Below are positions 6,543-39,748 of a stretch of 39,748 nucleotides of DNA, piece after piece (the first letter of the stretch is position 1; each line of letters starts with the position of its first letter). The notes beneath the pieces were generated by a model that was not told where the DNA came from, did not search any database, and saw only the letters and a program-made list of their open reading frames with translations. The stretch comes from a virus. The stretch lies in IMG/VR virus record IMGVR_UViG_2881214049_000001, one strand, 5' to 3'. Made by a program: the position numbers and the translations under genes.

Positions 6543-7427
6543 CTAAATTGCTTGGTAACCCTTAGCTAGAGCCCTTGAATCAACTCCTTGGCTGATAAGC
6601 GTAGCCGCTGCGTTAATTTCGTCTAAACGCGATAATGCACGCGCATCCATGCCAAGAGACTGAATCATATGCCCAGCTACTGAGCCATCTGCAAATATTG
6701 AGCGCGTATCCATACCACGCGAAGTAATATAGGGAGCAGACTCCATGCTTGCTTGATTGAAATACTCAGTATGGTAACCAAATCGAGCCAGCAGTAAGTT
6801 ACCCTTAGTAGTAAATCGCAAAGGCTGTAGAGCAATCGCCCTTCTTTCTACAGCAGCAACAGCAACTTTGTTTTGCTCAGGTAAACCGGTACTTGTTAAG
6901 AGCGCTTCAGAAGCTACCTGGGCGTGACTGATAAGCACTTTAGGCTGTATTCTATGCGTACCATGGAGAAGCGCAGCTTCCTGAACCTGAGATAGATTAC
7001 ACAGATACTCTGGTTTTATATGTGCGGTGTTATATAAAAGTGCATCCCTATTGGCAATGGAGTCAAAAAACACATATTCAGGTTTAATAGACGTAGTATT
7101 TAACAGTAACGGATCTAAATTAACCGTTGTGTGAATAAATATATAGCTAACTTTGGGCGACTGAAAGCTGCCAACTAAAACCGGCTCTTGAAGTTCACCA
7201 GTATAATTAGTTAGCACACTCCACCTGGCCGTATGCGCAGTTTTGACTACCAGATCTGAATAATTAGCATCGCCAAAAAACAATAGCTGTTCTTGTGGAT
7301 AGCCAATAAACTCTGTAGTGTGCTGTTTTGCCTTCACCCAATGTTGTCGGTAGCGAGAAACTGGCTTCTCCTCACCGTTCCAACTGTCGCGTAACGTGAT
7401 CCCTTTGTATCGTAAAGTAACGTGCAT
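6543..7427 (-). CDS. Hypothetical protein with short internal repeats
   Basis: AGGAG RBS. Repeats LL.NT..IKPEY and S.G(M/V)D.R(S/A) x3. Confidence 0.75.
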   Translation of the reverse strand: MHVTLRYKGITLRDSWNGEEKPVSRYRQHWVKAKQHTTEFIGYPQEQLLFFGDANYSDLVVKTAHTARWSVLTNYTGELQEPVLVGSFQSPKVSYIFIHTTVNLDPLLLNTTSIKPEYVFFDSIANRDALLYNTAHIKPEYLCNLSQVQEAALLHGTHRIQPKVLISHAQVASEALLTSTGLPEQNKVAVAAVERRAIALQPLRFTTKGNLLLARFGYHTEYFNQASMESAPYITSRGMDTRSIFADGSVAGHMIQSLGMDARALSRLDEINAAATLISQGVDSRALAKGYQAI

Positions 7428-7478
7428 AATGTCTCCTAGCCGTCAGACGCAAATGGTAGGTAATGCCTACCATCACAA

Positions 7479-8210
7479 TCACTCTCCCAAAGCCTCTATT
7501 TCAGCACCGCTTTTGAGTGTATCCACAGAGGAAAGGCGGTTAAGTGCCGCTTCCATTTGTGCTTTTGCATCTGACCAATCATGAAACATATTGGTGAAGT
7601 AAACATCGATAAATTTACTCACTAGAGGTAAATTCACATCACTTTTGCTCATATCCAATCGTGTTAACTGCAACGGAGCCTGTGAATCGTGTAAGCCAAC
7701 CGCCATATCAAAATATTTATAAGTTAGCTGCGCTACATCCAGCGGTGCAGAGCCATCCCAGATTTCATTAGGCCAATCCGTAATGTCTGTCTTGCTACGC
7801 ACTTCGTCTTGATCAACGATGATAAATGCCTGTGCTGCGGTACCACTGTTGCGAATATCAATTGCAAATTTAGAGGTGGGGTTAAAGCGCAGTGCCGGCA
7901 TAATAGGCAAACGCCTCTCTTCTGTATCAAAGTTCGTAGCTGGATCTCCCTTATCAGCGGCCTTTCGATATGTATATGATACGCCGAATTCAGCTAAAGG
8001 CAGTTGAGGTCGGCCCGAAGACCATTGGGTATACCCCACACTCGATGCTAATACCTGCTTATCTGCATCTAACACCACCAATAACGCGGGTTTACCTTCA
8101 ACAATCCGCATTCTTTTAAGATCTTCTGAAGTATCTTTGAACTGAGACTGGGTAGCATACTGTGGCTGCTCAGATGCAGCCAAGATATGTGGTAGGATAA
8201 TAAGTGACAT
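7479..8210 (-). CDS. Putative phage-structural protein, paralogue B1
   Basis: Shares KPALLxVxD..VLASxVG, PALRF, RNSGT and VYFTN..DWS with 9055..9783 and, partly, 15083..15823. Confidence 0.7.
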   Translation of the reverse strand: MSLIILPHILAASEQPQYATQSQFKDTSEDLKRMRIVEGKPALLVVLDADKQVLASSVGYTQWSSGRPQLPLAEFGVSYTYRKAADKGDPATNFDTEERRLPIMPALRFNPTSKFAIDIRNSGTAAQAFIIVDQDEVRSKTDITDWPNEIWDGSAPLDVAQLTYKYFDMAVGLHDSQAPLQLTRLDMSKSDVNLPLVSKFIDVYFTNMFHDWSDAKAQMEAALNRLSSVDTLKSGAEIEALGE

Positions 8211-8221
8211 ACAAAATACTC

Positions 8222-9022
8222 CTATTGCATCATGATGCGCAGTGAAAGTGGCGTAATAGTTTCAAATTCATAACCCCGTCTTGGCAGCTCTATTTGCAAA
8301 TCGGCACCGCTACCAACCAGGCCAATTGTACCAACTATAATCGGTCTTCTTTCAGGTTGATAATCATAAAACATGTGTGAAACATAGCCTGTTACTTTTG
8401 TGCCATCAGGATTTGTGGCACTCTTTGGCGCATACACTTTGTAGCTTTGCATTGTTGGTAAAGAACTTGATTCGCTGATCATAAACCACGTGGGCAGATC
8501 ACCAGATGTAAGTTTGTTCTCTCTACCGGCCTGTATAACACCATTGCGATTACCCGCATTCCAGGTATATTCCTTCTGCCCGTCAAAAGAAAAGTCCATC
8601 ATCCACGATGTCGTTACTCCTTCCAAAGGTGGCAGCGTTTGCATACCTTCAATCGCTGACTCCAACCGCACTCCCTCCGGCAGTATCAAGCCGCTAGCTC
8701 GAACCGACTGACCAAATACAGCTCGAGAATGGTTGTCAGTATGGTCACAGGACAATTCAATAGACCCGAGGTGAGGAAAGTGAAGGTCAAGAGAGAAACC
8801 ATATTTTTCAGTTGCATCCGCAGTAACGACATCACCTTCTTTCATCGCGAAGGTGCCGTAAAGTAATTCTGCTGGGGTAGGCACTCTACCTACAAAACCA
8901 TGCAAGTAATAATTACGTGCACCTTTGTTTTCTGAAGACGTGTCAATGTATGCAGGGCTGCCCCAACGATGTACAATTTCTTTAACCGCCTCATCATTAA
9001 TCAGTGTATTTAATGTAGACAT
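8222..9022 (-). CDS. Putative phage-structural protein, paralogue A1
   Basis: WGSP, GRVPTPAE..YGTF, PTWF.ISE and GTIGLVGSGADLQI shared with A2 and A3. Confidence 0.7.
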   Translation of the reverse strand: MSTLNTLINDEAVKEIVHRWGSPAYIDTSSENKGARNYYLHGFVGRVPTPAELLYGTFAMKEGDVVTADATEKYGFSLDLHFPHLGSIELSCDHTDNHSRAVFGQSVRASGLILPEGVRLESAIEGMQTLPPLEGVTTSWMMDFSFDGQKEYTWNAGNRNGVIQAGRENKLTSGDLPTWFMISESSSLPTMQSYKVYAPKSATNPDGTKVTGYVSHMFYDYQPERRPIIVGTIGLVGSGADLQIELPRRGYEFETITPLSLRIMMQ

Positions 9023-9054
9023 ATATTCTCCAAAAATTTAATTACTATGTGAGG

Positions 9055-9783
9055 CTAAAGGCCTGCGTCCAACATCTCTTGTGGGCTTTGCGTCGTGCTT
9101 ACCGATTCAATACTATTTAATCGCGCTTCTAGCTCCGCTTTAGCATTGGACCAATCACGTAAAAAGTTAGTGAAATACACATTGATATGGGGCTCAATCA
9201 ACTTTATGACTTGATCGTTTTGATCAACGTCTAAAGAGGAAAATCGCAACGTGGCATCCGACTGCTCAGTACCAACCGTTAACTCTAAGTATTTATAACC
9301 ACTGGTTGTTACGTCAAACGGTTCATCACCACGCCACATCTCACTAGGCCAGGTTTCTATATCTATTCTGCTATATTGTTCATTTCTATCGGTAATCAAA
9401 TAGGCATTCGCTATGGTGCCCGAATTTCTAAGTGCTACATCGAAATCCTGATATGGCGTAAACCTCAGCGCAGGGGTAAGCGGTTGCAAATTCACTGTTT
9501 GTGAAAAAGCAGTAACAGCATCAGCGTTGGATGTACGATATGTGAAGTTAACACCATGCTGACTAGGAGAAAGGTTTGAACGTTCCTTTGTTGACCAATA
9601 AGTCGTACCAACCGTAGATGCTAAAACGTTATTCTGCGCATCCACAACAATAAGTAGCGCAGGTTTATATTCAATCTTTCGTGTCAGATGAATATCTCTT
9701 GAAGATTCATGGATTGAAAGCTGAGCATAGCGAGTTCTGTTTTCAGCAGCTATCAATACAACCGGGTGAATAACCAATGACAT
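9055..9783 (-). CDS. Putative phage-structural protein, paralogue B2
   Basis: Clear full-length paralogue of 7479..8210; AGGAG RBS. Confidence 0.7.
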   Translation of the reverse strand: MSLVIHPVVLIAAENRTRYAQLSIHESSRDIHLTRKIEYKPALLIVVDAQNNVLASTVGTTYWSTKERSNLSPSQHGVNFTYRTSNADAVTAFSQTVNLQPLTPALRFTPYQDFDVALRNSGTIANAYLITDRNEQYSRIDIETWPSEMWRGDEPFDVTTSGYKYLELTVGTEQSDATLRFSSLDVDQNDQVIKLIEPHINVYFTNFLRDWSNAKAELEARLNSIESVSTTQSPQEMLDAGL

Positions 9784-9791
9784 AGTAGCTC

Positions 9792-10604
9792 CTAGTTACT
9801 TTTAATTTTCAACGATACTAAAGTTGCAGAGTAGATATTGTTTTCATATCCATCTGAAAGTTCAATTTCGGCACCACTACCCACAGAACCAAAACGGCCA
9901 TACAAGACCCCTAACCTAGAAAAGTGGGTACTTTGCAACGAATTAATTGTCGCAATATGTTGATTATCACGATCCATCACTTTTTGCGTATCTCTAGCAG
10001 GGAAATCTAAGTTTTCAGAAATATAAAACCAGGTGGGCTTGAACCCATGTACAAGCCGCCCCTCATCATGAGCTGTCTTTAACGCAGCTTTATTGCCCCC
10101 ATGCCAATGTTTTTTTGCGCTAGGACTAAACGTTACACTCATCATCATAGACGTATCATGGTGCTCTTTCACTGGCAATCGAATATAATGTGTATATCCT
10201 TTTACCAGTGATATTCCCTCGGGAAATACTCGCCCACTGACTTCAGCGTCAATAGTTGCCTGACCGGGAGAAGGTTCAGTATCAGCGTTACCACCTGCTC
10301 TATAATAATGCGCGTCAGCTGATAAATCGGTTCGAATACCAATCCAGCCTAGATAGGCATCAGCTAAATCGTGAGGGGTATTAGACACAAGATCTCCAGT
10401 TTTATTAATAAATGTTCCGTAGTACATTTCAGCAGGCGTTGGCACTCGCCCGGTAAACGCATGAATAAAGTACCGAGAGGCCAGTGAGCTACCATATTTG
10501 TGCATTCCCAAATAGTAAGTAGGACTCCCCCAACCATGTAATATCTCTTGTAGATCTTGCTTATTTAATAAGGTCTCTAACCTTGGTGCACCTTGATCAC
10601 TCAT
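9792..10604 (-). CDS. Putative phage-structural protein, paralogue A2
   Basis: HGWGSP, GRVPTPAEMYYGTF, PTWFYISE, GSVGSGAEIEL. Start moved to ATG 10604 (AGGAG RBS; length fits A1/A3). Confidence 0.7.
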   Translation of the reverse strand: MSDQGAPRLETLLNKQDLQEILHGWGSPTYYLGMHKYGSSLASRYFIHAFTGRVPTPAEMYYGTFINKTGDLVSNTPHDLADAYLGWIGIRTDLSADAHYYRAGGNADTEPSPGQATIDAEVSGRVFPEGISLVKGYTHYIRLPVKEHHDTSMMMSVTFSPSAKKHWHGGNKAALKTAHDEGRLVHGFKPTWFYISENLDFPARDTQKVMDRDNQHIATINSLQSTHFSRLGVLYGRFGSVGSGAEIELSDGYENNIYSATLVSLKIKSN

Positions 10605-10778
10605 CTGATCTCCTAATAACTGTGTCTCATCAATGCAAGCTATGTTCGGTGGACTGTTTCTAGCCATACATCATAAAATTTCAAGTCTAAGTAAACGTGC
10701 TGATGCACTAAAATATACACCAACCAGTATTGTACAATGTAAATTACACTCAACATACCACTAAACTACAACTTACTA

Positions 10779-11858
10779 TTATACAATACCTAAAATATGT
10801 ACATCGTTCACGCCGGTGGTGTACGTGTAAATAATATCGTAAGTGCCGTACCAATTCCTATGCCAATCAGGTGCGAGTACACCTGTAAACTGAAGGCGAA
10901 TACTTTTAACATTGTGAATAGGCGTTGGTAGATAAAGGGTTTCCACACCGCTTACGCCTTCGATAACAAATGTGTGTGCACTAGACCAATTACCAGCTGC
11001 ATCAGAGTATAAAAACTCAATTTGCTTGGGGCAACGATTGCGTCTTTGCGTTTCGCCTGAAATATGTAACCCAACCACGGTACGTTGTAACGTTTTAAAG
11101 TCAACTTGCAGGTAACTCGTGCCATTCACTTGGTCGGAAAGCCACAAACCACCACTTTGAAAAGCATGAAAAGGCAAAGTGTATGTCCAAAAACGTGCGC
11201 CACTATAGGGTGGACCCGCGTTACGAAACCCAGTGAAATCGCTCGAAACTAATCCGTTGGTACTGGGTAGAGACAGTTGCTGTGGCTTTTCACACACATC
11301 TTGATGCGGTTGGTGAATATAAAATGGCAATGGAACTTGATGCTGCTCAAGAAAAAGCCCCCGACCCATTGCAAAATCTTCAATGTGTTCAATTTCGAGA
11401 TCAGCGCCCGAGCCTTTCTTTCCAACTGTTCCTACAAAAAATACGTATCCCCTCACACTTAAATTGGCATCAACAGATGCGACACCATCTAGTTGGGTCA
11501 TCACGAATACAAATGATCGTAGTTCGCCAGTGTGCAGATACAAGGGAAAAACACCTCCTTCTGTTTCCTGTGGCCATCTAAATGACATAATACCTTCGTC
11601 ATTGACCTCAAGCCGTGGCATATCTCGATAAGCAGCAGGTTTGTGCCCTGCACTCAACATCAAATTGATGTCATTTTTACTAAGGCCGTTATTAAGCCTC
11701 AAGTACGCTACAAGCTCTTCAACTGGTCGAGAATCTAAACAAAACAACGCACCTTGGCTCAGGTCATTATGCCAAAGTGTTTTATCAAACGTTGGTAAGT
11801 TTGCATTTAAGTCTGTCGCTAGCTTTTTTTTATTAACCCAATAATGTTGGGACACCAC
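10779..11858 (-). CDS. Paralogue C1: structural N-domain plus C-terminal discoidin/F5-8C-like domain
   Basis: HYW, GALFCLDSR, GTVGKKGSGADLEI; C-terminus YLQVDF...PKQIEFLYS...IRLQF is discoidin-like. Confidence 0.7.
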   Translation of the reverse strand: MVSQHYWVNKKKLATDLNANLPTFDKTLWHNDLSQGALFCLDSRPVEELVAYLRLNNGLSKNDINLMLSAGHKPAAYRDMPRLEVNDEGIMSFRWPQETEGGVFPLYLHTGELRSFVFVMTQLDGVASVDANLSVRGYVFFVGTVGKKGSGADLEIEHIEDFAMGRGLFLEQHQVPLPFYIHQPHQDVCEKPQQLSLPSTNGLVSSDFTGFRNAGPPYSGARFWTYTLPFHAFQSGGLWLSDQVNGTSYLQVDFKTLQRTVVGLHISGETQRRNRCPKQIEFLYSDAAGNWSSAHTFVIEGVSGVETLYLPTPIHNVKSIRLQFTGVLAPDWHRNWYGTYDIIYTYTTGVNDVHILGIV

Positions 11859-11959
11859 CAGATCTCCTTTACATATTCAACGAGCGCAAAACGCACCAGA
11901 GCCTCTGTATTCATGACCTTAACCCGCTACAACAATGGATTAGTAAACATGACAAAACC

Positions 11960-13027
11960 TTATACAACACCCAGAACACGAATATCACTGATACCGATTG
12001 TACGGGTGAAAATTCGTCCAGGCCCGTAACGGTTTTTATGTGAATCAGGATTCAATACATCATTAAACTTCAGGCGCACACCTTTCACATTTTTTACCGG
12101 CTCTGGTAAATATAGAGTTTCAATACCTCGTGTACCTTGAATGACAAATGTATGGGCACTGTGCCATACGCCCTGAGCATCAATACAAATAAACTCTATC
12201 TTTTTTGGACAACGGTTACGTCGCCCTATCTGTCCCGCAATATACACTCCAGAAATAGAGCGCTGAATGGTTTCAAAGTTAACTTGCAAATGACCATTTA
12301 AAGCACTTGAAAGCCACAAACTTCTTTGAAACGCAGAATAAGGTGGTGTTGATACACCACGCTGCGCTCCACTATACAATGGCCCCGAATTATTTACACC
12401 TTGATAATCTCTGGTAGTCATACCATTAGTACCAGGTAAAGATAATGCCTGTGGATGAGTACTTTTATCGGCATGGGGCTGATGGATGAAAAATGGCATA
12501 TCAATGCTATTATTCTCCATAAAAAGCGCGCCTCCTACCTCATATTCAGAGATTTCCTCAAGCTCCAAATCGGCGCCAGAGTCTTTGCCACCGACTGTGC
12601 CTGCAAAAAATACGTAAGCCCTGGCACTTAAGTTGGGGTCAACCGAAGCATACGGGTCTACCCTTGTCAGCAGTAAAATAAATGACTGAACGGGCCCCGC
12701 TTCTAACTGTAGTGGATAAATCGCTTGGTTCGTTTCTTGTGGCCAAATAAATGATATTTTACCGTCGTCACTGACGACCAATTCAGGCATCTGCCTGTAC
12801 GATACAGGCTTATACCCAGATACTAACATAGCATTGATTTGAGCCGCATTAAGACCATTTTCTAACCTCAACTCATCCGCTAGTGCTTCAACAGGCCTAG
12901 CATCGAGACAAAAGAGCGCCCCCTGATCTGAGGTACCTCCCCAAGCCGTACCTGTAAAAGTAGGTAAGTATGAAGCTAAATCAGCTCCTAGTTTGCGCTT
13001 ATTTATCCAATAATGTGTGGATACCAT
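11960..13027 (-). CDS. Paralogue C2: structural N-domain plus discoidin-like domain
   Basis: Full-length paralogue of C1 (GTVGGKDSGADLEL; RRNRCPK; SAHTFVI). Confidence 0.7.
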   Translation of the reverse strand: MVSTHYWINKRKLGADLASYLPTFTGTAWGGTSDQGALFCLDARPVEALADELRLENGLNAAQINAMLVSGYKPVSYRQMPELVVSDDGKISFIWPQETNQAIYPLQLEAGPVQSFILLLTRVDPYASVDPNLSARAYVFFAGTVGGKDSGADLELEEISEYEVGGALFMENNSIDMPFFIHQPHADKSTHPQALSLPGTNGMTTRDYQGVNNSGPLYSGAQRGVSTPPYSAFQRSLWLSSALNGHLQVNFETIQRSISGVYIAGQIGRRNRCPKKIEFICIDAQGVWHSAHTFVIQGTRGIETLYLPEPVKNVKGVRLKFNDVLNPDSHKNRYGPGRIFTRTIGISDIRVLGVV

Positions 13028-13075
13028 AATCTCTCCATTCTTGGTATAACACGGAAATAGGCAACCAAGTTCGTG

Positions 13076-14113
13076 CTAAACACAACCTAGTACAACCATT
13101 TGCTCTATCGCGATGTGATAGTAGTAGTTGTAACGACCTGACCAACGGTTATAGACTCTGTCTTTAGCAAGTGATTCGATCAGTTCAAATCGCATGCTGA
13201 CCACGCCTTTTAGGGGGTCTGGGAATGTAAGGGTAACAATGCCATTTGAACCTGTATTATCAAATGTGGGACCTGTTCGCTCAACGCCATCGGCCAATGT
13301 ATAAAAGACCTTGATTATCCTAGGTAAGCGATAACGCCAATTAAGCTGACCTTCAACAAACAAGCCTGTAATTTCTTTTTGTGGCTCTTTGAAATCAACT
13401 TTAACATAGCTGCCACCAGAGGCCGCCGTAGTCCCCCAAACACCTCCAACCTTAAATGGACGCCAATAATTGCTACTTGGATTTGTTGAGCAATTAGCCA
13501 CACGAATACCATTTGTTCCAATTAAAGACAGCGGCTGTGGCGCATTCAGACGGTCAATATGCGCGTTATAAATATTAAATGGTGTAGTTACTTTATTATC
13601 TGGTACATACAAGGGTCGACCATTTTTATATTCATCGACCTTTTCAATTTCCAGCTCGGCACCACTTCCTTTCGTACCAACTGAACCCACGAAAAAAATA
13701 TGTGTTCGAACGCTCAGCTGGCTATCTAACGTAGCCCTATCACTAGTATTACTCATTAAAAAAGCAAATGACTTAACCTCCCCTTCTTCCAATTGCGGAG
13801 GGTAGCAAAGGTAGCGCTGTGCATCAGGCCAAGAAAACGTAATGCCACCAGAACCATCGATAGCTATTTGTGCGCGATCACGCCAGCCCATTGGTTTCGA
13901 TGGTTGCGTGAGCATATTATTAACCTGCGTTTTACTTAGCCCATTTTGATGGCGTAAATATGCTGCAAGCGCTTCAGGTTCTCTGCTATCGAGCAAAAAC
14001 AACGCGCCTTCATTGTGGTCACTAGACCAGCTTGAGTCTTTAAATGTTGGCAGATATTCACTGAGACAGTTGACTAGCATTTGGCTGCTAATCCAGTAGT
14101 GGGCAGCGGTCAT
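13076..14113 (-). CDS. Paralogue C3: structural N-domain plus discoidin-like domain
   Basis: GALFLLDSR, GSVGTKGSGAELEI, YVKVDF; C-terminal domain more divergent than C1/C2. Confidence 0.7.
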   Translation of the reverse strand: MTAAHYWISSQMLVNCLSEYLPTFKDSSWSSDHNEGALFLLDSREPEALAAYLRHQNGLSKTQVNNMLTQPSKPMGWRDRAQIAIDGSGGITFSWPDAQRYLCYPPQLEEGEVKSFAFLMSNTSDRATLDSQLSVRTHIFFVGSVGTKGSGAELEIEKVDEYKNGRPLYVPDNKVTTPFNIYNAHIDRLNAPQPLSLIGTNGIRVANCSTNPSSNYWRPFKVGGVWGTTAASGGSYVKVDFKEPQKEITGLFVEGQLNWRYRLPRIIKVFYTLADGVERTGPTFDNTGSNGIVTLTFPDPLKGVVSMRFELIESLAKDRVYNRWSGRYNYYYHIAIEQMVVLGCV

Positions 14114-14124
14114 GAATATACTCC

Positions 14125-14667
14125 TTATAAGGGGACTCTTACAGGTAACATATTGACAGGATCTGGCGCCTGCCCTTGATCAGAACTCTCAGTTATCACC
14201 AGCAAGTCCTTGCTAGAAACAGTATCGCCGACACCAACTGAGCCTAAAAACTCGATGCCACCGGTTACATTTTCCACCTGCTCCCAGTCACCCTCAAGAA
14301 CAGCAAACCATGTTGGTATTGGCAACGGTTCGCTCGCACTATAAAGCTTGCTAGCCACTTTGTGAGATAATGACGCTTCATCATTAGCTTGGCTGTATAA
14401 AAGGTTTGTAACTAATGCAGATTTGTTCCAATTAGGCGTTCCGTACTCTACCGAATCGGTGTAAGACAGAGATTTACCAGATAAAATTGGAATTAACTCA
14501 TACGTCGCGATGAAATCACTGCTACGTGCTTTTAAAACCTGCAACATATCCTCTTCTGATAGTCCCATGTCAAAAGCTGGTAATGCCCCTGAAAAAAGCA
14601 TCAATCTGCGTTTGGAGTGATTTAAAAACAACAAAGTTTTTAAAACCGTTGAGTAGTTTGTTATCAC
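14125..14667 (-). CDS. Putative phage-structural protein, paralogue D
   Basis: LMLFSGALP, PTWF and GSVGVG..DL resemble the A-family motifs; AGGGG RBS with GTG start. Confidence 0.6.
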   Translation of the reverse strand: MITNYSTVLKTLLFLNHSKRRLMLFSGALPAFDMGLSEEDMLQVLKARSSDFIATYELIPILSGKSLSYTDSVEYGTPNWNKSALVTNLLYSQANDEASLSHKVASKLYSASEPLPIPTWFAVLEGDWEQVENVTGGIEFLGSVGVGDTVSSKDLLVITESSDQGQAPDPVNMLPVRVPL

Positions 14668-14832
14668 CGTATTCCCCTAAAAATAGTGCTACTGGCCTTT
14701 ACCCTCAGCCCTAAATGTCATTCTATACATACCCGCCTAACTACTAGGTTTGTTTTGAGCCAAGAAGGCTTTTTTGGTAGCACCGCTACCGAAATCTGCT
14801 GTCGACAAAAGATTTAGATCTATGTAGATAAA

Positions 14833-15022: not shown

Positions 15023-15082
15023 TTCAAATTGAGCAAGTATTAAGTCAAATTGGTATTACTCTTTAAAAATGCTTAACTGATA

Positions 15083-15823: not shown

Positions 15824-15830
15824 TGTGCTC

Positions 15831-31100: not shown

Positions 31101-31108
31101 ATCGTCTC

Positions 31109-31495: not shown

Positions 31496-31797
31496 TATTT
31501 GCGCCTCAACACCGTTTTATTGATTTGGATAGCATTCAGTAAAAGCACGCTCTGTTGTTGCTTTTGCTGTAACTTGCGGTAATCCAAATGTCCTTCGTCA
31601 AGGATCAAGCGTTCAATACGCTCATAAAATCGGCGTAAGAACGTAATGGCTTGCGTTAGCTCTTTGATTGGCACGCCTTGCTCACTGAGCATGGCAGCCT
31701 TTAGCTCCGATAGTGCATCGTGCAATACATACAAAGCATCTTCGCGCGTTTTTAGAGCAACAACATTGACACGGTAAAAACTAAACAAGGTTGACAT
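31495..31797 (-). CDS. Hypothetical helical protein (100 aa)
   Basis: AAGGAGG RBS before ATG 31797; stop overlaps the next start (TAATG). Confidence 0.7.
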   Translation of the reverse strand: MSTLFSFYRVNVVALKTREDALYVLHDALSELKAAMLSEQGVPIKELTQAITFLRRFYERIERLILDEGHLDYRKLQQKQQQSVLLLNAIQINKTVLRRK

Positions 31798-31814
31798 ATT
31801 TGCCTCCTTCTTCA

Positions 31815-31863
31815 TATGTTGTACAACATAAATGAGCCGACAACTACGTCGGCCCATTTATGT
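31815..31863. promoter_or_regulatory. 16-bp palindrome TATGTTGTACAACATA overlapping a long hairpin (possible terminator/attenuator)
   Basis: Palindrome at 31815-31830; hairpin ACATAAATGAGCCGAC-6nt-GTCGGCCCATTTATGT at 31826-31863 (one mismatch). Confidence 0.55.
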
Positions 31864-31890
31864 GTGTTAATACAAGGTAGGCCGAAAAAC

Positions 31891-34287
31891 TTAAGCTGTT
31901 GGGTCTGCAAGTTTACGAACTGCTTGGACAGAGACTTTTACTCTTGCCGCTTCAGTTAGGTAAATCATCACAACATTGTCTGATTCTTGCTTGACCATGG
32001 TAATGTCGTTATAGAAGCGGGCATCTTCGCCTTCACCGCGCTCCACCCATACCATCACGTCGACATATTCAGAGTTTAGATTGTGTTCGATTTTGTGCTG
32101 CATCAGTTTGTTCTGTGACAGCTCGAAGTAAACATTATCATTAACTTGGTTTACGACATTGGTGATATTAGAGCGTACGCCACCCAGTTCAGATGCCATT
32201 TCTACATCTAACTTGGTGATAGCGCCAAATAGCGACGTTGTATCCTTGATATAAGTGTAGCTATCAACACTTTGCATGCTACCGTCTGCTGATAGTCCTG
32301 CCCCTTGTTTGATAGCGTTGTCAGCGTTCTCACGGGCAATCTTTTCAGCGACTAACTCGCTAGAGACTGCCTTTAATGCGCTATCTAAGAGTAAGCTTGC
32401 ATTGTGTACACTCGTCGCGGTGTTTAAGTAGTTGCTGTCGGTTGCTTGCTTATAGCTTCCATCCAGCTCTAGACCCGTGCCTACTTGTGTTTTATCAAGC
32501 TCTAACTGTAGCGCTTGTCTTGCATTGTTATGTGCTTCTGATTCGCTGGATAGACGTTCATCAACGGCTTTAATTGCATCATCTAACGCTTTATCAGCTG
32601 TTTTTAAGCTAGTGACCGCTGTTAAGTAATTCGTTTCTGAATCAGCAATATAGCGACCGTCTGCCTCAAGGCCTGCAGCAATTTGGGTGGCGTTGAGTTC
32701 ATTGGCAATGGCATTCACACTGTCTTGGAATGTGGCTGAAACCTTCAGGCCTGCATTACTTTTTTCTAGTGTATCGCCATCTATCTTAATCTGTAGCTTA
32801 GCCGCTGACGCATCTGACTCGGTGCTGCCATCTTCAGTTGTAAATAAGCCATCGCCAAAGTCGATACCAATCTCATCAGTTGGAGATTCCTTAACACCAG
32901 CCCCAAAATTCAAAAATAGGGTATTGCCATCTTTTTGAATACCTGCACCTGCTGTTAGCTGGCCTGCGCCCGAGAATTGTACGAAAGTCAGCTCGGTGGT
33001 TTCTAGACTAATTGGGTTGGGAGTGCCAAGTACAAAACCAGCATTGGCATAGGTTGCACCTTCTTCAATGAAGGTGTGCATGCCATTAGTTACTTCGCCA
33101 TCTGGCGTACCATCTGCGTCTATCGCGCGCTCAAATTCAGCTTTTGCTTCGGTCGTTTGGTCAGAAACCTCAGAGATAGTGACGACATAAATACCGTTAT
33201 AAATCGCGCTTGGTGAGTCGGTACCATTTTGGCTTGCTGAGTTTTTGATAAGTACGCGGTCGCCACTGACGAGTGTTACACCATCAATTTGATAACTGTT
33301 ATCGCCATTATCTTGAATATCACCACCGAGGTTGGCAATGGGGGCGGTTGTTGCGACCCGTACGGACTCTCGGACATCTAAGCCGGCACGCATACCATCG
33401 ATGTATTTTAAATTAACTAGGTGATTGGGTTGCGTAGGTACGTGCGCGCTACTGATTGGGTTGGTACCCATATCGAGTGCGCCAGTCATTACACCGCCCG
33501 CAATATTTAGTTTTAAGTCATCGGCTTGCTCAGCGGCAACTTTATTGCTTTGTACCGTGTCTGTTAGCGACTTTATTGCATCATCTAACAACTCGTCAGC
33601 AGCGGCGAGAGAAGGCACTTTAGATGCGTTAGTAAAATCTTCTGATTTTAGATAATTTGCCCCAGTTGAAGGCGTATAATCGCCAGACTCACTTAACCCT
33701 GCTGCTGCTTGGGTTTTGTCTAACTCAGCTTGAATAGCCTCTGAGCTGACTTTACTGGCTGCTTTGTTGATGTCGATTTGATCAACCATCGCATCTAGGG
33801 CTGCCTTCAACGTGGTCGGTGCAATACTAAATTCACCTAAACCACCTGCTTTACCTTCGTAGCCAATTTTATTGGTACCAAGGCCTGCATTTTGCGCACC
33901 TAAATCAGCTAATGCTTGTTTGTCTGCATCAACAGCATCAATGATGGCGCCGATGATATTGTCTAGCGTGCTTGCTTGCGCTGAAAACTTCGCATTGATG
34001 CCTTGCTTGCCTTCGTAACCGACTTTAGAAGCACCTGAATTGCCTGCTTCTTGAGATGCAAGCGCTGCTAAAAAGTCAGTAAACTCTTGGGTTGTTTGAA
34101 AAGCTATCGTTGTCAGCGCACCGCCTTCGTCAGTGATCGATGCCTTAAATTGCTTTTCAGCAGAGTTATACCACACGCGGCCTTCAGAAGCGCCTTGCGG
34201 ATCTGAAGCCAAGGATTCAATAACAAGGTTTTCAAATGTTGCGCTATTTGCTAGCGTGATACCGTGAAAAATAGGGTAGTTAGCCAT
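31891..34287 (-). CDS. Phage tail-fibre/fibritin-like protein (798 aa)
   Basis: GLDVRESVRVATT, IDGVTL..GDRVLIKN, NGIYVV, RAIDAD and TFVQFSGAG form a common tail-fibre domain; repeats ELD.TQ..GL..G.Y..NYL; C-terminal HNLNS domain. Confidence 0.8.
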   Translation of the reverse strand: MANYPIFHGITLANSATFENLVIESLASDPQGASEGRVWYNSAEKQFKASITDEGGALTTIAFQTTQEFTDFLAALASQEAGNSGASKVGYEGKQGINAKFSAQASTLDNIIGAIIDAVDADKQALADLGAQNAGLGTNKIGYEGKAGGLGEFSIAPTTLKAALDAMVDQIDINKAASKVSSEAIQAELDKTQAAAGLSESGDYTPSTGANYLKSEDFTNASKVPSLAAADELLDDAIKSLTDTVQSNKVAAEQADDLKLNIAGGVMTGALDMGTNPISSAHVPTQPNHLVNLKYIDGMRAGLDVRESVRVATTAPIANLGGDIQDNGDNSYQIDGVTLVSGDRVLIKNSASQNGTDSPSAIYNGIYVVTISEVSDQTTEAKAEFERAIDADGTPDGEVTNGMHTFIEEGATYANAGFVLGTPNPISLETTELTFVQFSGAGQLTAGAGIQKDGNTLFLNFGAGVKESPTDEIGIDFGDGLFTTEDGSTESDASAAKLQIKIDGDTLEKSNAGLKVSATFQDSVNAIANELNATQIAAGLEADGRYIADSETNYLTAVTSLKTADKALDDAIKAVDERLSSESEAHNNARQALQLELDKTQVGTGLELDGSYKQATDSNYLNTATSVHNASLLLDSALKAVSSELVAEKIARENADNAIKQGAGLSADGSMQSVDSYTYIKDTTSLFGAITKLDVEMASELGGVRSNITNVVNQVNDNVYFELSQNKLMQHKIEHNLNSEYVDVMVWVERGEGEDARFYNDITMVKQESDNVVMIYLTEAARVKVSVQAVRKLADPTA

Positions 34288-34312
34288 ACTTTGACTGTCC
34301 TCTTACGTCGAA

Positions 34313-37300
34313 TTATGAATAAAACACAACGTCAATGAAGCCGGTTAGGGCTTCGGTGAGACTCACCACAAAACTCATGTCGTCAATGATTTCGTGATGT
34401 GCGAACATGCGCACACCTTGACTGTTAAAAATTTCAATCGAGAAATCTTTGGTATTTCTCTCATGTTGTACAATCCACTGCGTTGATTGCTGAGAAAATT
34501 CAAATCTCAGTCTTTTTGGCAGTGATACTCGAGTCAGTATTTGTGCCATGCGGTCTTCGACCAGCTGTGGCACGGTTTCAGTTAATTTTAACGTGACCAG
34601 GTTTGGTATAAAGGTCGACTTTAATGTTTCAACCTCTGTATCTACAACGGTACGAACGGTGCTGTCTACCAAGTCAGGAACTGCTTCTTGGAGCGCAGCT
34701 TGTACTTCATTCAATGCGTATTCAGGTACTATGCGCTCGATAAAGGGTGACACCGTTGTGTCGACATACTCTTGTACAATACCTTGCGCAAGCGCGGTTA
34801 CATTGTCTTGAAAGTATGCGGCAATACTGCCTTCATCTTTTAGACCCTCATTGATCTTGAACTCAACTAAACTCGGTAGTTCTGAGGTTATCGCGCCAAA
34901 CGCCTTATCAACCTCACCGCTCACAAATAGTGGAAGTTGATTAGATATCTCTAATTGTACAACAGTAGAGAGAATATCGGGTAGTTGTTTGTCTACTTCC
35001 TGCGCTATTTTTGGAACGACGGATCCGTTGATGTGTGTATCGATCTGTGCCGCAGTCTTTGATGCGATAATGGGCCACAATGTATCTTCATTTAGCTGAG
35101 CATCAATCATATCCGGAACAGTGATCGCGTCGACAGTCGCGGCTATTTCTTGGATCTGTTCTTGAGTCCAATGGTTACCCAAGTTAATACTATCGATGGC
35201 TTGGCTCAGCTCCGTGCGATACGTCTCAGTGATTGACTGGGCTAGGTTTGATAGCGCGTCTGCAACGGTCTGTTCGCCAAAAGTGCCGAGCTTTTCGTTA
35301 AGCTTGTCCTCTACAATGCCTGGAACTATAACATTGTCGACGGCTGCTGCAATCTCCTCTATTTGAGCTTGGTTCCATATTCCTTGACCAATATTCTCAA
35401 TTGCTTGGGCTATTTCAGCCCGATAGGCCTCAGTTACGGTTGCTTGTAACGCGCTGAGATCATCGACAAGTGCTGCTTGGGCAAGTGGCGCAAGTTTTTC
35501 CTCAAGTTGTGTGTCGACAATGCCTGGCACGACTATGTGGTCTATTGCCGCTGCAATGTCTTCAATCTGTGCTTGAGTCCACTGATTGCCTTGGCCCATA
35601 TTTTCGATGGCTTGCGCGATTTCAGCTCTGTAAGCGTCGGTGATGGAAGTTTGCAGGGCGTTCAGATTGTTTTCAACAGCAGCCTGAGCCAGTGGAGCAA
35701 CTCTCGCGGGCAGCTGTGCATCAAGCATGTCTGGCACGGTGACACTGTCGACTGCTGCGGCAATTTCTTCAATTTGAGCCTGGCTCCATGCACCCTGAGC
35801 AATCTGCTCAATAGCTTCGTTTATCTCGGTGCGGTACGCCTGCGTGATAGACTGACTAATAGCAGATAATGTATCGGCAACCGTTTGTTCTCCCAGATCA
35901 CCTAACCTTTCGGCAAGTATAGTCGCCACAATGTCTGGGACGGTGATGTTGTCAACAGCAGCGGCGATTTCCTCGATTTGAGCCTGGTTCCAGATCCCCT
36001 GTCCCATGCTCTCAATTGCCTGAGCGATATCAGCTTTGTAGGCTTCGGTGACGGCTGCCTGCAAGGCATTGAGGTCGTCGACAAGCGCTGCTTGAGCTAG
36101 AGGCGCTACTTTTAAAGCGAGCTGTGTGTCGACAATATCCGGTACCGTGACGGTGTCGACGTTGGCGGCAATGGACTCAATCTGTGCTTGAGTCCATTGG
36201 TTGCCTTGAGCAATGCTATCAATCGCTTGTGTGATTTCTGCTTGGTAAGCCGCGGTGACAGATGCCACTAATGCGCTCAAATCATCAGCAAGGGCGGCTT
36301 TGGCTAAGGGTGCAACTTTTGCGCTTAACTGTGTGTCAATGATCTGGGGAACGTTAATAGAATCGACATTGGCGGCAATGTTTTCTATCTGTGTCTGCGT
36401 CCAACTGTTGCCTAAGTCAATGCTCTCAATTGCCTGATTTATCTCAGTTCGGTAGCTGGTTGTGAGCGACTGAGCCATTGTCGAGAGTGCATCTGCAACG
36501 GTTTGTTCACCCAACGTACCGAGCTTGGCATTGAGGTGATTATCCACAATCTCTGGTACGGTGATAGTATCGACATTAGCGGCGATGTCTTCAATCTGCC
36601 CTTGCGTCCAATTGTTAATTTGATCAATGCCTTCAATGGCTTGATTTATCTCCGCGCGGTAGGTTTGGGTGATGGACTGCGCCATAGCAAAAAGCGCATC
36701 AGCAACAGTTTGATCCCCAAGTTCGCCAAGTTTTGCATTTAATTGATTATCAACAATGCTTGGCACGGTGATAGCATCAACTGCGGCGGCAATGCTTTCG
36801 ATTTGTTCTTGGTTCCAGCTATTGCCTTGACTGATACTGTCAAGCGCCTGTGTAATGGCCGTATTGTATGCTTCGGTCACCGCGCTCTCCAGCGCGAGTA
36901 AATCATCGGCAAGGGCGACTTTGGCCAGAGGAGCGACCTTCAAACTCAGCTGAGCATCTACAATATCTGGTACCGTGACCGTGTCGACGTTGGCGGCAAT
37001 GTCCTCAATCTGTGCCTGCGTCCACTGATTGCCTTGTTCTATGCTATCAATCGCTTGTGTGATTTCTGCTTGGTAAGCCGCAGTGACGGACGCCACCAAT
37101 GCGTTCAAGTCATCAGCCAGCGCAGCTTTGGCCAAGGGGGCAACTTTTGCGCTTAACTGAGTGTCAATGAGCTGGGGAACGGTGATAGAATCGACGTTGG
37201 CGGCAATGTCCTCAATCTGTGCCTGCGTCCACTGGTTGCCTTGTTCTATGCTATCAATCGCTTGTATGATTTCTGCTTGGTAAGCCGCAGTGACGGACGC

Positions 37301-39748
37301 CACCAATGCGTTCAAGTCATCAGCCAGCGCAGCTTTGGCCAAGGGGGCAACTTTTGCGCTTAACTGAGTGTCAATGAGCTGGGGAACGTTAACTGAGTCG
37401 ACATTAGCGGCAATGTTTTCTATTTGAGCCTGTGTCCAGCTGTTGCCTAGGTCAATACTCTCAATTGCCTGACTTATCTCAGTTCGATAGCTGGTCGTGA
37501 TCGATTGAGCCATTGCGAAGAGTGCATCTGCAACGGTTTGTTCTCCCAACGTACCAAGCTTGGCATTGAGGTGATTATCGACGATATCTGGTACGGTGAT
37601 AGTATCGACATTAGCGGCAATGCTTTCTATCTGTGCTTGTGTCCAATTACTACCTTGGTTGATATTGTCAATTGCCTGGACAATTGCCGCGGTATACGCT
37701 TCGGTTACTGAGTTCTCCAGTTGATATAGATCGTCAGCAATGGCCGCTTTGGCCAAGGGAGCGACTTTTAGGTTCAGCTGAGTATCAACGATATCTGGTA
37801 CGATAATATTGTCGACCGCTGCGGCAATCTCTTCGATCTGTCCTTGCGTCCAGCTACTACTTTGCCCTATGTCTTCAATGGCTTGGTTTATCTCGGCGCG
37901 ATAGCTAGTCGTGATAGACTGGGTCATGGCCGAAAGTGCGTCTGCAACGGTATTGTCGCCAAGAGCGCCTAATTTTACGCTGAGTTGATTATCAACAATG
38001 TCAGAGGTGATAGCAGTACTTACTGCCGCAGCAATATTTTCTATTTGCGATTGAGTCCAACTATCGCTAGGCTCTATCCCCTGAAGAGCTTGTGTGATTT
38101 CGGCTCTATAGGCTTCGGTGACAGAAGCTTGCAATGCGTTAAGGCTGTCTTCAATTGCTGTGATAGCAAGGGGTGCCACTTTCAAATTAAGCTGTGCATC
38201 AACAATATCTGGGACAGTAACCATGTCAATGTTAGCGGCAATCTCTTCTATCTGTGCCTGTGTCCAATTGTTACTTTGGCTGATATTATCAACCGCTTGC
38301 GTAATTGCCGCGGTGTACGCTTCGGTTACAGCGGTCTCCAGTTGATATAGATCGCTCGCAAGAGCCGCTTTAGCTAAAGGTGCGACTTTTAAACTCAGCT
38401 GAGTGTCAACAATGTCAGGTACGATAATGTTGTCGACGGCTGCAGCAATTTCTTCGATCTGTCCTTGTGTCCAGCTATTGCTTTGCCCAATACTCTCAAT
38501 GGCTTGGCTTATCTCGTTGCGGTAGTTAGTCGTGATAGACTGCGCCATGGCCGACAGCGCGTCAGCAACGGTATTGTCGCCGAGGGAGCCCAATTTGGTG
38601 CTCAATTGATTTGCAACAATATCCGGCACCGTGACGTTATCAACCGCCGCTGCGATTTCTTGAATTTGCGCTTCGCTCCAACCGCCACTTTGGTCAATGC
38701 CGGCGATGGCTTGGGCGATTTCTGTCTGGTAGGCGTCAGTGACACTGGCTTGCAAAGCATTGAGGTCATCGGCAAGGGCGGCTTTGGCCATTGGTGCAAC
38801 TTTTAAGTTCAATTGCGTGTCGACGATTTCTGGCACCGTGACGTTATCAACCGCTGCTGCTATTTCTTGAATTTGCGCTTCGCTCCAACCGCCACTTTGG
38901 TCAATGCCCGCGATGGCTTGGGCGATTTCTGTCTGGTAGGCGTCAGTGACACTGGCTTGCAAAGCATTGAGGTCATCGGCAAGGGCGGCTTTGGCCATTG
39001 GTGCAACTTTTAAGTTCAATTGCGTGTCGACGATTTCTGGCACCGTGACGTTATCAACCGCTGCTGCTATTTCTTGAATTTGCGCTTCGCTCCAACCGCC
39101 ACTTTGGTCAATGCCGGCGATGGCTTGGGCAATTTCTGTCTGGTAGGCGTCAGTGACACTGGCTTGCAAAGCATTGAGGTCATCGGCAAGGGCTGCTTTG
39201 GCCATTGGCGCGACTTTTAAAGTCAGTTGTGTGTCAACGATTTCTGGCACCGTGACGTTATCAACCGCCGCTGCTATTTCTTGAATTTGCGCTTCGCTCC
39301 AACCGCCACTTAGGTCAATGCCGGCAATGGCTTGGGCAATTTCTGTCTGATAGGCGTCAGTGACACTGGCTTGCAAAGCATTGAGGTCATCGGCAAGGGC
39401 AGCTTTGGCCATTGGCGCGACTTTTAAAGTCAGTTGTGTGTCGACGATTTCTGGCACCGTGACGTTATCAACCGCTGCTGCTATTTCTTGAATTTGTGCT
39501 TCGCTCCACCTGCCACTTTGGTCAATGCCGGCGATGGCTTGGGCAATTTCTGTCTGGTAGGCGTCAGTGACACTGGCTTGCAAAGCATTGAGGTCATCGG
39601 CAAGGGCAGCTTTGGCCATTGGCGCGACTTTTAAAGTCAGTTGTGTGTCGACGATTTCTGGCACCGTGACGTTATCAACCGCTGCTGCTATTTCTTGAAT
39701 TTGTGCTTCGCTCCACCTGCCACTTTGGTCAATGCCGGCGATGGCTTG
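34313..39748 (-). CDS. Giant acidic repeat protein (>1800 aa, 5'-truncated), at least 22 ~69-aa repeats
   Basis: The frame stays open past the GTG at 39664 to the window end. Each repeat has one W and a conserved Y. C-terminal WIVQHERN beta domain. Confidence 0.9.
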   Translation of the reverse strand, partial: QAIAGIDQSGRWSEAQIQEIAAAVDNVTVPEIVDTQLTLKVAPMAKAALADDLNALQASVTDAYQTEIAQAIAGIDQSGRWSEAQIQEIAAAVDNVTVPEIVDTQLTLKVAPMAKAALADDLNALQASVTDAYQTEIAQAIAGIDLSGGWSEAQIQEIAAAVDNVTVPEIVDTQLTLKVAPMAKAALADDLNALQASVTDAYQTEIAQAIAGIDQSGGWSEAQIQEIAAAVDNVTVPEIVDTQLNLKVAPMAKAALADDLNALQASVTDAYQTEIAQAIAGIDQSGGWSEAQIQEIAAAVDNVTVPEIVDTQLNLKVAPMAKAALADDLNALQASVTDAYQTEIAQAIAGIDQSGGWSEAQIQEIAAAVDNVTVPDIVANQLSTKLGSLGDNTVADALSAMAQSITTNYRNEISQAIESIGQSNSWTQGQIEEIAAAVDNIIVPDIVDTQLSLKVAPLAKAALASDLYQLETAVTEAYTAAITQAVDNISQSNNWTQAQIEEIAANIDMVTVPDIVDAQLNLKVAPLAITAIEDSLNALQASVTEAYRAEITQALQGIEPSDSWTQSQIENIAAAVSTAITSDIVDNQLSVKLGALGDNTVADALSAMTQSITTSYRAEINQAIEDIGQSSSWTQGQIEEIAAAVDNIIVPDIVDTQLNLKVAPLAKAAIADDLYQLENSVTEAYTAAIVQAIDNINQGSNWTQAQIESIAANVDTITVPDIVDNHLNAKLGTLGEQTVADALFAMAQSITTSYRTEISQAIESIDLGNSWTQAQIENIAANVDSVNVPQLIDTQLSAKVAPLAKAALADDLNALVASVTAAYQAEIIQAIDSIEQGNQWTQAQIEDIAANVDSITVPQLIDTQLSAKVAPLAKAALADDLNALVASVTAAYQAEITQAIDSIEQGNQWTQAQIEDIAANVDTVTVPDIVDAQLSLKVAPLAKVALADDLLALESAVTEAYNTAITQALDSISQGNSWNQEQIESIAAAVDAITVPSIVDNQLNAKLGELGDQTVADALFAMAQSITQTYRAEINQAIEGIDQINNWTQGQIEDIAANVDTITVPEIVDNHLNAKLGTLGEQTVADALSTMAQSLTTSYRTEINQAIESIDLGNSWTQTQIENIAANVDSINVPQIIDTQLSAKVAPLAKAALADDLSALVASVTAAYQAEITQAIDSIAQGNQWTQAQIESIAANVDTVTVPDIVDTQLALKVAPLAQAALVDDLNALQAAVTEAYKADIAQAIESMGQGIWNQAQIEEIAAAVDNITVPDIVATILAERLGDLGEQTVADTLSAISQSITQAYRTEINEAIEQIAQGAWSQAQIEEIAAAVDSVTVPDMLDAQLPARVAPLAQAAVENNLNALQTSITDAYRAEIAQAIENMGQGNQWTQAQIEDIAAAIDHIVVPGIVDTQLEEKLAPLAQAALVDDLSALQATVTEAYRAEIAQAIENIGQGIWNQAQIEEIAAAVDNVIVPGIVEDKLNEKLGTFGEQTVADALSNLAQSITETYRTELSQAIDSINLGNHWTQEQIQEIAATVDAITVPDMIDAQLNEDTLWPIIASKTAAQIDTHINGSVVPKIAQEVDKQLPDILSTVVQLEISNQLPLFVSGEVDKAFGAITSELPSLVEFKINEGLKDEGSIAAYFQDNVTALAQGIVQEYVDTTVSPFIERIVPEYALNEVQAALQEAVPDLVDSTVRTVVDTEVETLKSTFIPNLVTLKLTETVPQLVEDRMAQILTRVSLPKRLRFEFSQQSTQWIVQHERNTKDFSIEIFNSQGVRMFAHHEIIDDMSFVVSLTEALTGFIDVVFYS
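38620..39748. repeat. Near-identical 207-bp tandem repeats (at least 5 copies)
   Basis: Shadow ORFs recur at 38813, 39020 and 39434 (multiples of 207); units differ mostly at synonymous sites. Confidence 0.95.

Follow-up and report, generated by a model that had tools for sequence, protein, structure and literature searches.

A 39,748-nucleotide viral DNA sequence, IMG/VR virus record IMGVR_UViG_2881214049_000001 (the whole stretch is here called the window), carries between positions 6543 and 39748 a putative plasmid origin of replication flanked by two blocks of genes. The left block is an array of eleven genes. The central block (~16.7-26.6 kb) holds a primase-polymerase-like gene, a methyltransferase-like gene, an array of palindromes, a Fic toxin with an antitoxin-like partner, and a RepA gene beside a set of iterons, and the right block is an operon of fibre-like genes that includes one giant repeat protein. 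An earlier reading of this DNA from its letters alone (the sequence-only reading) had described the two outer blocks as co-oriented, and both do lie on the minus strand (6543-16592 and 26576-39748). Using megablast, we found that positions 6543-16732 are 99.2% and positions ~21434-39748 are 98.6% identical to NZ_CP072685.1, a closed circular, non-mobilizable plasmid of 128,275 bp from Pseudoalteromonas sp. SCSIO 43201. The same arrangement recurs on contig C15 of the nearest genome compared (G001) and in G002, a 127,643-bp IMG/VR record that corresponds to contig RDBW01000012.1 of GCA_003934235.1. The capsid protein of this replicon and family B, a protein family of the left array, are each present in the same two of 140 genomes of the genus, and a literature search returned no paper describing the 128-kb element. 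We conclude that the window is probably the tail-fibre and plasmid-maintenance sector of a 128-kb plasmid descended from a jumbo myovirus.

Virion genes of the 128-kb replicon

The sequence-only reading had recognised no capsid, portal, sheath, tube or lysin gene. This holds for positions 6543-39748, but all of them are encoded elsewhere on the same replicon; a profile search of the whole replicon, which it had proposed, finds the capsid, portal, sheath, tube and baseplate genes and fails to find a terminase. The head module lies directly left of the window and consists of the portal, a 236-amino-acid (aa) protein, a prohead protease (phrog_207, 3.6e-31, and Peptidase_S77) and a Gp23-type major capsid protein (Pfam Gp23, E 2.9e-14), with phrog_138 also among its profile matches. 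Outside the window, too, are a sheath gene (phrog_23, E 3e-75), a tube gene and further tail genes, which encode a 1,321-aa tape-measure-like protein, baseplate V (baseplate hub), PAAR, a gp25-like protein, a 'phage tail protein' and two DUF4815 proteins. The same circle encodes neck proteins, a lysis cassette with a GH108 lysin, and ParA, whose gene is followed by a ParB-like one. Besides the true sheath gene, six tandem paralogues of 296-657 aa (NZ_CP072685.1 52832-61098) match phrog_12249 'tail sheath' at E 1e-32 to 1e-58 and are followed by a giant open reading frame (ORF) of 2,837 aa.

The capsid protein is 55.7% identical to those of Rhizobium phages RHph_Y65 and RHph_TM30, and the sheath and portal are 39% and 38% identical to those of RHph_Y65. 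Eighteen genes, from the portal to a DUF4815 adsorption protein, are syntenic with Y65, so that the element carries the head, neck, sheath, tube, baseplate and adsorption modules of the Kleczkowskaviridae (RHph_Y65, RHph_TM30, Cuauhnahuacvirus; ~207 kb) in the same order. In contrast, the fibre genes that follow DUF4815, the left array, the primase-like gene and the plasmid functions have no counterpart at 158-207 kb of Y65, the part that the comparison covered. Y65 also has the genes of the small and large terminase subunits (TerS and TerL) upstream of its portal, whereas the 128-kb element does not.

Like phage-plasmids, the element joins plasmid replication, partition and addiction functions to head, tail and lysis genes on an extrachromosomal replicon. 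Its ~99% identity to a closed circular plasmid record marks it as autonomous; its replication and partition functions comprise a RepA with plasmid homologues, iterons and ParA with the ParB-like gene, and its virion and lysis genes comprise the capsid, S77 protease, portal, sheath, tube, baseplate and GH108 lysin. It differs from phage-plasmids in that it lacks the terminase, which is found in a sister element (contig C26 of the Pseudoalteromonas genome G137), and in that its plasmid origin is recent, compositionally foreign and missing from this terminase-positive sister. The phage-plasmid with head genes elsewhere that the sequence-only reading had offered as one possibility thus had the anatomy right, with capsid, portal and protease on the circle, and lacks TerS and TerL. 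Because neither subunit was found, the element does not appear to be a self-sufficient phage. Phage-plasmids reportedly include the P1, N15 and SSU5 groups among others, and most of what is known of them concerns modest-sized phages like P1, N15 and SSU5. To our knowledge, a jumbo-phage lineage with a T4-type head is not among the groups described.

The other possibility raised by the sequence-only reading was a plasmid-domesticated particle resembling a tailocin or an extracellular contractile injection system (eCIS). R-pyocins, the antifeeding prophage and Photorhabdus virulence cassettes (Afp/PVC) and the metamorphosis-associated contractile structures (MACs) of P. luteoviolacea share with the element a contractile sheath, tube, baseplate, PAAR, fibres and the absence of genome packaging. 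However, the element has head genes, shows no AAA+ assembly ATPase or effector cassette, and its tail genes are syntenic with those of a true phage. Since its portal, protease and capsid genes are intact, we rejected an eCIS or tailocin; a particle that is kept by the plasmid, with its terminase missing, is still in part possible.

Right operon and central block

The coordinates of the features are collected in Table 1. The right operon is the continuation of the tail operon and follows immediately on the genes for the baseplate and DUF4815 proteins. Its position, the domain similarity of its products and their conservation in a terminase-bearing relative make the conclusion that it encodes distal tail fibres well supported.

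Table 1. Genes and sites in the window, from right to left
Feature	Position	Strand	Remark
Giant fibre-like protein, 3' 1,811 codons	34313-39748	-	ORF runs off right window end
798-aa tail-fibre-like structural protein	31891-34287	-	PHROG and phage matches
Two small ORFs, 120 and 128 aa	31109-31857	-	Between fibre genes; 'hypothetical' in closed plasmid
728-aa modular fibre protein	28914-31100	-	N-terminus phrog_21918, E 9e-17
326-aa protein, tail-fibre-type C-terminal domain	27898-28878	-	PHROG matches
189-aa and 243-aa proteins	26576-27892	-	ORFs; last two genes of right operon
AT-rich iteron region, putative vegetative origin	25200-26575	.	Directly upstream of repA
RepA, 370 aa, replication initiator	24087-25199	-	Plasmid homologues
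Antitoxin-like ORF, 51 aa	23079-23234	-	Overlaps Fic upstream; SSKYEG (SxxxEG inhibitory motif)
Fic toxin, 195 aa	22502-23089	-	Pfam E 3.5e-17; NCBIfam Fic 2e-48; VbhT 5.6e-35
Five GTACCAWTGGTAC palindromes, 108-bp period	21114-21771	.	Putative centromere-like or operator array
Methyltransferase-like protein, 473 aa	18912-20333	+	phrog_498 'DNA methyltransferase' 2.1e-05
Primase-polymerase-like protein, 535 aa	17068-18675	+	phrog_2478 'DNA polymerase/primase' 2.3e-05; EID, SGGVHLYW motifs
B1	15831-16592	-	First gene of left array in transcription order
A1	15083-15823	-	
D	14125-14667	-	
C1	13076-14113	-	
C2	11960-13027	-	
C3	10779-11858	-	
B2	9792-10667	-	
A2	9055-9783	-	
B3	8222-9022	-	
A3	7479-8210	-	
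294-aa protein	6543-7427	-	Last gene of left array
630-aa recombinase-like protein	691-2583	+	Divergent from portal; Pfam Phage_integrase 25 bits, XerA/XerD fragments
Portal, 591 aa	start codon at 205	-	Head module

The giant repeat protein noticed from the letters is real. On the closed plasmid it measures 2,123 aa by our ORF call (2,118 aa in the record annotation) and is built of a ~207-aa N-terminal domain, ~24 tandem units of 69 aa and a ~260-aa non-repeat C-terminus, which has no match in a PDB sequence search. The units are rich in Ala, Ile and Gln, come in two alternating types and are visible in the DNA as 207-bp tandem repeats. By eye they look like helix-loop-helix segments, and we infer that the protein is a long segmented fibre. 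The 798-aa protein matches phrog_30390 (1e-22), phrog_11518 'tail fiber protein' (1.5e-14) and phrog_24595 'virion structural protein' (3e-14), its centre matches the PA5oct 'structural protein' and cyanophage PSS2, and a full-length orthologue of 49% identity lies at G137:C26:184753-187137. In the 728-aa protein, residues 15-138 resemble proteins of jumbo Erwinia phages, and residues 316-461 a 'tail fiber-like protein' of a Synechococcus phage; the orthologue on G137:C26 is shorter, keeping both ends at 50% identity and missing the middle. PDB searches gave no match for either protein. In the 326-aa protein, residues 211-318 match phrog_22757 (7e-07), phrog_29809 and phrog_7049 'tail fiber protein' (2.6e-04). 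The sequence-only reading had seen tail-fibre motifs in both blocks, and it is in the right one, in the 798-, 728- and 326-aa proteins, that they are borne out; the left block yields no Pfam or PHROG family. The smaller genes of the right operon are less telling. The 120-aa and 128-aa ORFs matched no Pfam or PHROG family and are possibly assembly factors, the 189-aa protein appears by eye to be membrane-spanning and coiled-coil, and a match of the 243-aa protein to phrog_19088 (6e-10) is the only notable one of the last two genes.

Between the operons, positions 20.3-26.6 kb are AT-rich, with a GC content of 0.34-0.38 as against 42-50% in the flanks. By tblastn, RepA has homologues among the replication initiators of 1,286 plasmid records (26-31% identity, coverage of 80% or more), which carry the annotation 'replication protein A' or 'RepB family' and some of which belong to plasmids of IncA/C size or to Pseudoalteromonas chromids. 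No Pfam, NCBIfam or PDB match was obtained for RepA. In the adjoining non-coding region, the core ACCWCTGAT occurs in 12 copies in both orientations (25279-26508), with two others in the window. An initiator beside AT-rich repeats is the layout of an iteron-type theta replicon of the RepA/RepB family, and origin activity is predicted here. The plasmid homologues of RepA, the 12 iterons and the low GC content agree with the iteron/RepA origin of the sequence-only reading, and its Fic pair (FicTA) is equally sound, given the Fic profile matches, an active-site motif and the overlapping 51-aa ORF with SxxxEG. The toxin carries HPFREGNGR, and HPFREGNGRAQR fits HxFx(D/E)GNGRxxR; this motif and a separate small upstream protein with (S/T)xxxE(G/N) identify a class I Fic system of the VbhT/VbhA type. 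The sites called parS-like are likewise a real array of GTACCAWTGGTAC with a 108-bp period, confined to 21118-21771 and found nowhere else on the 128-kb replicon. There are five copies in the window and eight in the SCSIO plasmid (NZ_CP072685.1 122822-123787), so that copy number varies between near-identical plasmids.

RepA of this type is absent from G137:C26; the only homologue in that genome is on another contig and is 31% identical. Since the sister contig lacks it, the block of RepA, iterons, Fic pair and palindromes appears to have been acquired by the 128-kb lineage. The primase-like and methyltransferase-like genes, which diverge from the left array, have a different history. The sequence-only reading had counted them with the plasmid replicon, a view that we abandoned, as orthologues hold the same position in relatives: at 36% and 44% identity in a 400,011-bp metagenome contig (ERZ27315289 k141_37242) and at 37% and 39% in G137. 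Both are thus ancestral phage genes. The primase-like protein has no NCBIfam or PDB match and gave a negative tblastn search against cultured phages, and the methyltransferase-like protein has no NCBIfam match.

The left array and its relatives

BLASTP and alignments sort the eleven-gene array into four families in the order B-A, D, C, C, C, B-A, B-A, 294. Family A proteins have 243, 242 and 246 aa, family B 266, 291 and 253, family C 359, 355 and 345, and D has 180. Families B, C and D share only a 28-residue segment with G-x-x-G-x-x-GSGADLE. Homologues are rare: an exhaustive profile search among 1.84 billion proteins returned 16 representatives of family B, nothing but G002 emerged when viral contigs were scanned for motifs of families B and C, and for family C a word-indexed homologue search led back to the element alone. 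No PDB sequence or profile match was found for families A and C, nor any NCBIfam match for the 294-aa protein.

The genomic contexts of the family B relatives are informative. In the 400-kb contig, a B-A pair, D and the N-terminal domain of C are part of a ~14-gene, ~13-kb cassette that starts beside the primase-like gene. The C counterpart there is a 189-aa protein equal to the C N-domain, without the discoidin-like part. The cassette is tandemly duplicated (~356-393 kb), with copies that are 36-53% identical gene by gene, and its second gene (g2) encodes a 633-aa protein in one copy and, in the other, a protein of 1,014 aa with Bact_surface_Ig-like domains; ten cassette neighbours have no PHROG match. 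G137:C26 (202.6 kb) carries the full cassette and a second B-A pair. In a third relative, the 103.7-kb contig L019, the B-A pair is present three times, with D and a single C. In the 400-kb contig and G137:C26, the order methyltransferase-like gene, primase-like gene and cassette with B, A, D and C N-domain matches that of the window. The Pseudoalteromonas contig also shares the 798- and 728-aa genes, ProQ, the recombinase-like gene, HU, the lysis genes and ParA, and it has TerS and TerL and no RepA of the present type. In contrast to the window, both relatives keep the full ~14-gene cassette and have a C without the discoidin-like domain. Because these contexts carry a fuller cassette, the left array appears to be a remnant of an ancestral ~14-gene cassette from which ~9 genes were lost and in which the B-A pairs and C were amplified. 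It also diverges faster than its surroundings: between the window and L019, array proteins are 31-40% and neighbours 48-68% identical.

Two genes beyond the end of the array deserve mention. A 401-aa protein (4668-5873, minus strand) bears the RefSeq name 'chloride channel protein' without Pfam, PHROG or NCBIfam support and is kept after the array in G137 (41% identity) and L019 (48%). A ProQ/FinO-family protein (3488-4336, minus strand; Pfam 1.4e-12) belongs, with Hfq, SecB, HU and thioredoxin elsewhere on the replicon, to a set of RNA and protein chaperones that is unusual for a phage or plasmid.

Array and replicon share a candidate regulatory signal, the palindrome TTGTACAA, with 16 copies in the window against 1.5 expected. 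Its sites include 248, 274, 566, 4494, 4596, 6507, 10730, 16742, 16867 and 24076; the left array has copies at its head (16742, 16867), within it (10730) and beyond its end (6507), others precede the portal gene, and most copies are in intergenic leaders, on phage-derived and plasmid-derived parts alike. The palindrome is frequent in the 400-kb contig and L019 and occurs once in 49 kb of Y65. The AATGAGAC leader motif is not enriched in the window (18 matches with at most one mismatch against 33 expected), and scans for sigma-70 promoters and terminators were not above shuffled controls.

We then consider structure. The fold check that the sequence-only reading had called for gave a divided answer, with a confident model for family B that has weak matches to virion parts and no clear structural relative, and a failed one for family C. 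The AlphaFold2-type model of family B, from a 15-sequence alignment, has a predicted local distance difference test score (pLDDT) of 80.6 and a predicted template modelling score (pTM) of 0.79. It has no Foldseek match in the PDB at E <= 0.001 and one in BFVD, an uncharacterised jumbo Erwinia phage protein (E 3e-4, template modelling (TM) score < 0.36). An exhaustive VIA-align search returned four chains at Z >= 2, of which the top three are phage virion parts: Z is 4.7 for a 139-aa chain of 9RKV, the tail-fibre entry of phage 7-7-1, 3.5 for a neck chain of Sf14 and 2.8 for the entry of the GP4 fibre-tail adaptor. A structure search of the ESM Atlas gave three clusters, mostly viral hypothetical proteins of 127-135 aa (TM by target 0.65-0.67), and its feature search gave no usable match for B or A. 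In Agrobacterium phage 7-7-1, small 'garland' proteins decorate the fibres (PMC12796354), and from its size we infer that the 139-aa chain of 9RKV is the garland protein. The left array resembles the garland of 7-7-1 and the multiple receptor-binding sets of large phages in that small paralogues neighbour tip-bearing proteins. However, the similarity of family B to the 9RKV chain is weak (Z 4.7, root-mean-square deviation 5.5 Å, no sequence similarity), and any attachment to a baseplate is putative. A role of family B as a fibre-associated adaptor is plausible from the model, and we tentatively propose, with somewhat more doubt than conviction, that the left array encodes accessory fibre or adaptor proteins with lectin-like tips.

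Several observations weigh against including the left array in a tail-fibre sector. None of its eleven proteins matched a family in Pfam or PHROG or any tail-fibre profile, so that the sequence-only reading's assignment of the left operon to fibre genes is not demonstrable. One of the three C paralogues reaches 24 bits with F5/8 type C (discoidin), below the Pfam cut-off of 28.2, and a tblastn search with B1 did not find family B in cultured phages. The AlphaFold2 model of family C, from three sequences, is unusable (pLDDT 39.7; only residues 248-325 form moderately confident strands), and the family B fold matches are weak (Z <= 4.7, TM by query <= 0.38). In the window as in its relatives, moreover, the array adjoins replication, methylation, ProQ and HU genes, not baseplate genes.

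The array could instead be an intracellular, clade-specific module for host takeover, anti-defence or a replication compartment, with no place in the virion. It always adjoins, and diverges from, the primase-like and methyltransferase-like genes, its proteins have no fibre profile matches and lie far from the baseplate genes, and the TTGTACAA signal is common to the array and the non-structural blocks, all as such a module would have it. We nevertheless consider it somewhat less likely than the fibre or adaptor reading. The larger g2 copy has Bact_surface_Ig-like domains, family C ends in a discoidin-like, beta-rich domain (a sub-threshold match and a weak model), family B comes closest in fold to parts of virion fibres or necks and to small viral proteins, and the duplication of the whole cassette (copies at 36-53% identity), together with fast divergence, resembles receptor-binding modules.

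Packaging genes, selection and the history of the plasmid

We searched for the terminase with Y65 TerL as a probe. It had no match in the closed plasmid (tblastn E < 50; phmmer --max) and none at E < 1 in G001 or G002. As a positive control, the same probe matches G137:C26:92965-94878 with E 3e-163 and 43-45% identity, where a TerS-like protein (335 aa) and TerL (637 aa) precede the portal, a 233-aa protein, the protease and a capsid protein that is 72% identical to that of the 128-kb element (G137:C26:91644-97084). Since the probe that fails on the 128-kb element finds the TerL of its sister, these searches show, at the level of sequence, a loss of TerS and TerL specific to the 128-kb lineage. 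A search of G002 in all six frames with five TerL Pfam families was likewise negative; such profile negatives carry little weight alone, because the TerL of this very clade, in G137, escaped a six-frame search with Pfam Terminase_6N. Other large terminases do occur in G001, on its contigs C33 and C30, and a divergent or helper-supplied terminase for the element is possible, which must be set against our reading.

Upstream of the portal, the window has a 485-bp intergenic stretch with three TTGTACAA palindromes and then the divergent 630-aa gene. Because TerS and TerL sit at the portal in G137, the deletion or rearrangement of the packaging genes maps to the junction at window positions 1-690. 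The 630-aa protein has orthologues in G137 (43% identity) and L019 (50%) and could be a recombinase for dimer resolution or rearrangement. We rejected it as a terminase, as it has no similarity to Y65 TerL and has weak tyrosine-recombinase matches at its C-terminus instead. Its size recalls protelomerases, of which no match was found, and a PDB sequence and profile search also gave no match.

Comparing the window with the SCSIO plasmid, both terminase-less, we counted 36 synonymous and 29 nonsynonymous codon differences in the eleven left-array genes, and 37 and 18 in eight right-operon genes. Assuming ~3 nonsynonymous sites per synonymous site, the ratio dN/dS is ~0.27 on the left and ~0.16 on the right, a crude codon count on few differences, which is a further point against our reading. 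The synonymous excess, small counts as these are, indicates that both operons still encode working proteins.

These results are consistent with the following history of a plasmid descended from a jumbo myovirus. The acquired RepA-iteron block would now drive theta-type plasmid replication, and ParA with the ParB-like protein, the GTACCAWTGGTAC array as a possible centromere and the Fic pair would stabilise the plasmid. On the baseplate, long and side fibres would be built from the giant protein with its 69-aa repeats and from the 798-, 728- and 326-aa proteins. From the ~14-gene cassette, only B, A, D, C and the 294-aa protein would have been kept; the B-A pairs would have been amplified to three, and C would have gained a lectin-like tip and tripled. 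Left-array proteins might, if this uncertain step is right, widen or switch the recognition of surface glycans. Without a terminase, the element would be unable to package its own genome and would thus persist vertically as a plasmid, while its particle genes would stay under purifying selection.

A related scenario holds that the particle has been domesticated, its heads, contractile tails and amplified lectin-tipped fibres being kept for the host on a stable plasmid. Suggested uses are DNA-free killing, packaging of random DNA in the manner of a gene-transfer agent, and adhesion to coral or algal surfaces. Terminase loss goes together with the acquisition of RepA, iterons and the Fic pair, both operons show a synonymous excess after that loss, amplification of the C-type tips sets the element apart from its relatives, and ProQ, Hfq, SecB and HU are carried, each of which would suit domestication. 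Yet the compared plasmids are ~99% identical, which leaves little time for decay, so that selection may only appear to persist; a tailocin has no use for head genes, and a gene-transfer agent needs a terminase. We therefore hold domestication to be improbable; if true, it would constitute a head-bearing, plasmid-borne counterpart of tailocins.

Still more doubtful is a fully functional temperate phage-plasmid, whose terminase would be too divergent to detect or supplied by a resident prophage and whose operons would be ordinary virion fibres. No structural ORF is interrupted, the element has a lysis cassette, the G001 host encodes the other terminases mentioned, and the failure of Terminase_6N on the TerL of G137 shows profile searches to be fallible here. 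Against it, the Y65 probe that detects the sister TerL (3e-163) finds nothing in the plasmid, G001 or G002, the expected terminase site is taken up by the 485-bp intergenic stretch and the divergent recombinase-like gene, and a six-frame search of the element found none of the five TerL Pfam families. We know of no case in which a T4-type head is filled by a foreign terminase, which also counts against a functional phage. Finally, that replicon and fibre operons were joined by misassembly or chance, or are part of a chromosomal prophage, can be dismissed, because the closed 128,275-bp circle, G001:C15 and G002 have one common order, as the synteny check proposed in the sequence-only reading brought out, and we found no point in its favour.

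The 128-kb plasmid looks like a natural intermediate between virus and plasmid. The cassette of families A, B, C and D represents a protein family without annotation anywhere, for which family B now provides a confident model, one to which no structure is clearly related. Three stages lend themselves to direct comparison: an uncultured relative of 400 kb, a sister on a 203-kb contig with terminase and ParA, and the 128-kb plasmid, in which the terminase appears to have been lost, a RepA-iteron origin and a toxin-antitoxin pair gained and one cassette remodelled. Thus, a route from virus to plasmid, or to a domesticated particle, becomes testable in a culturable marine genus.

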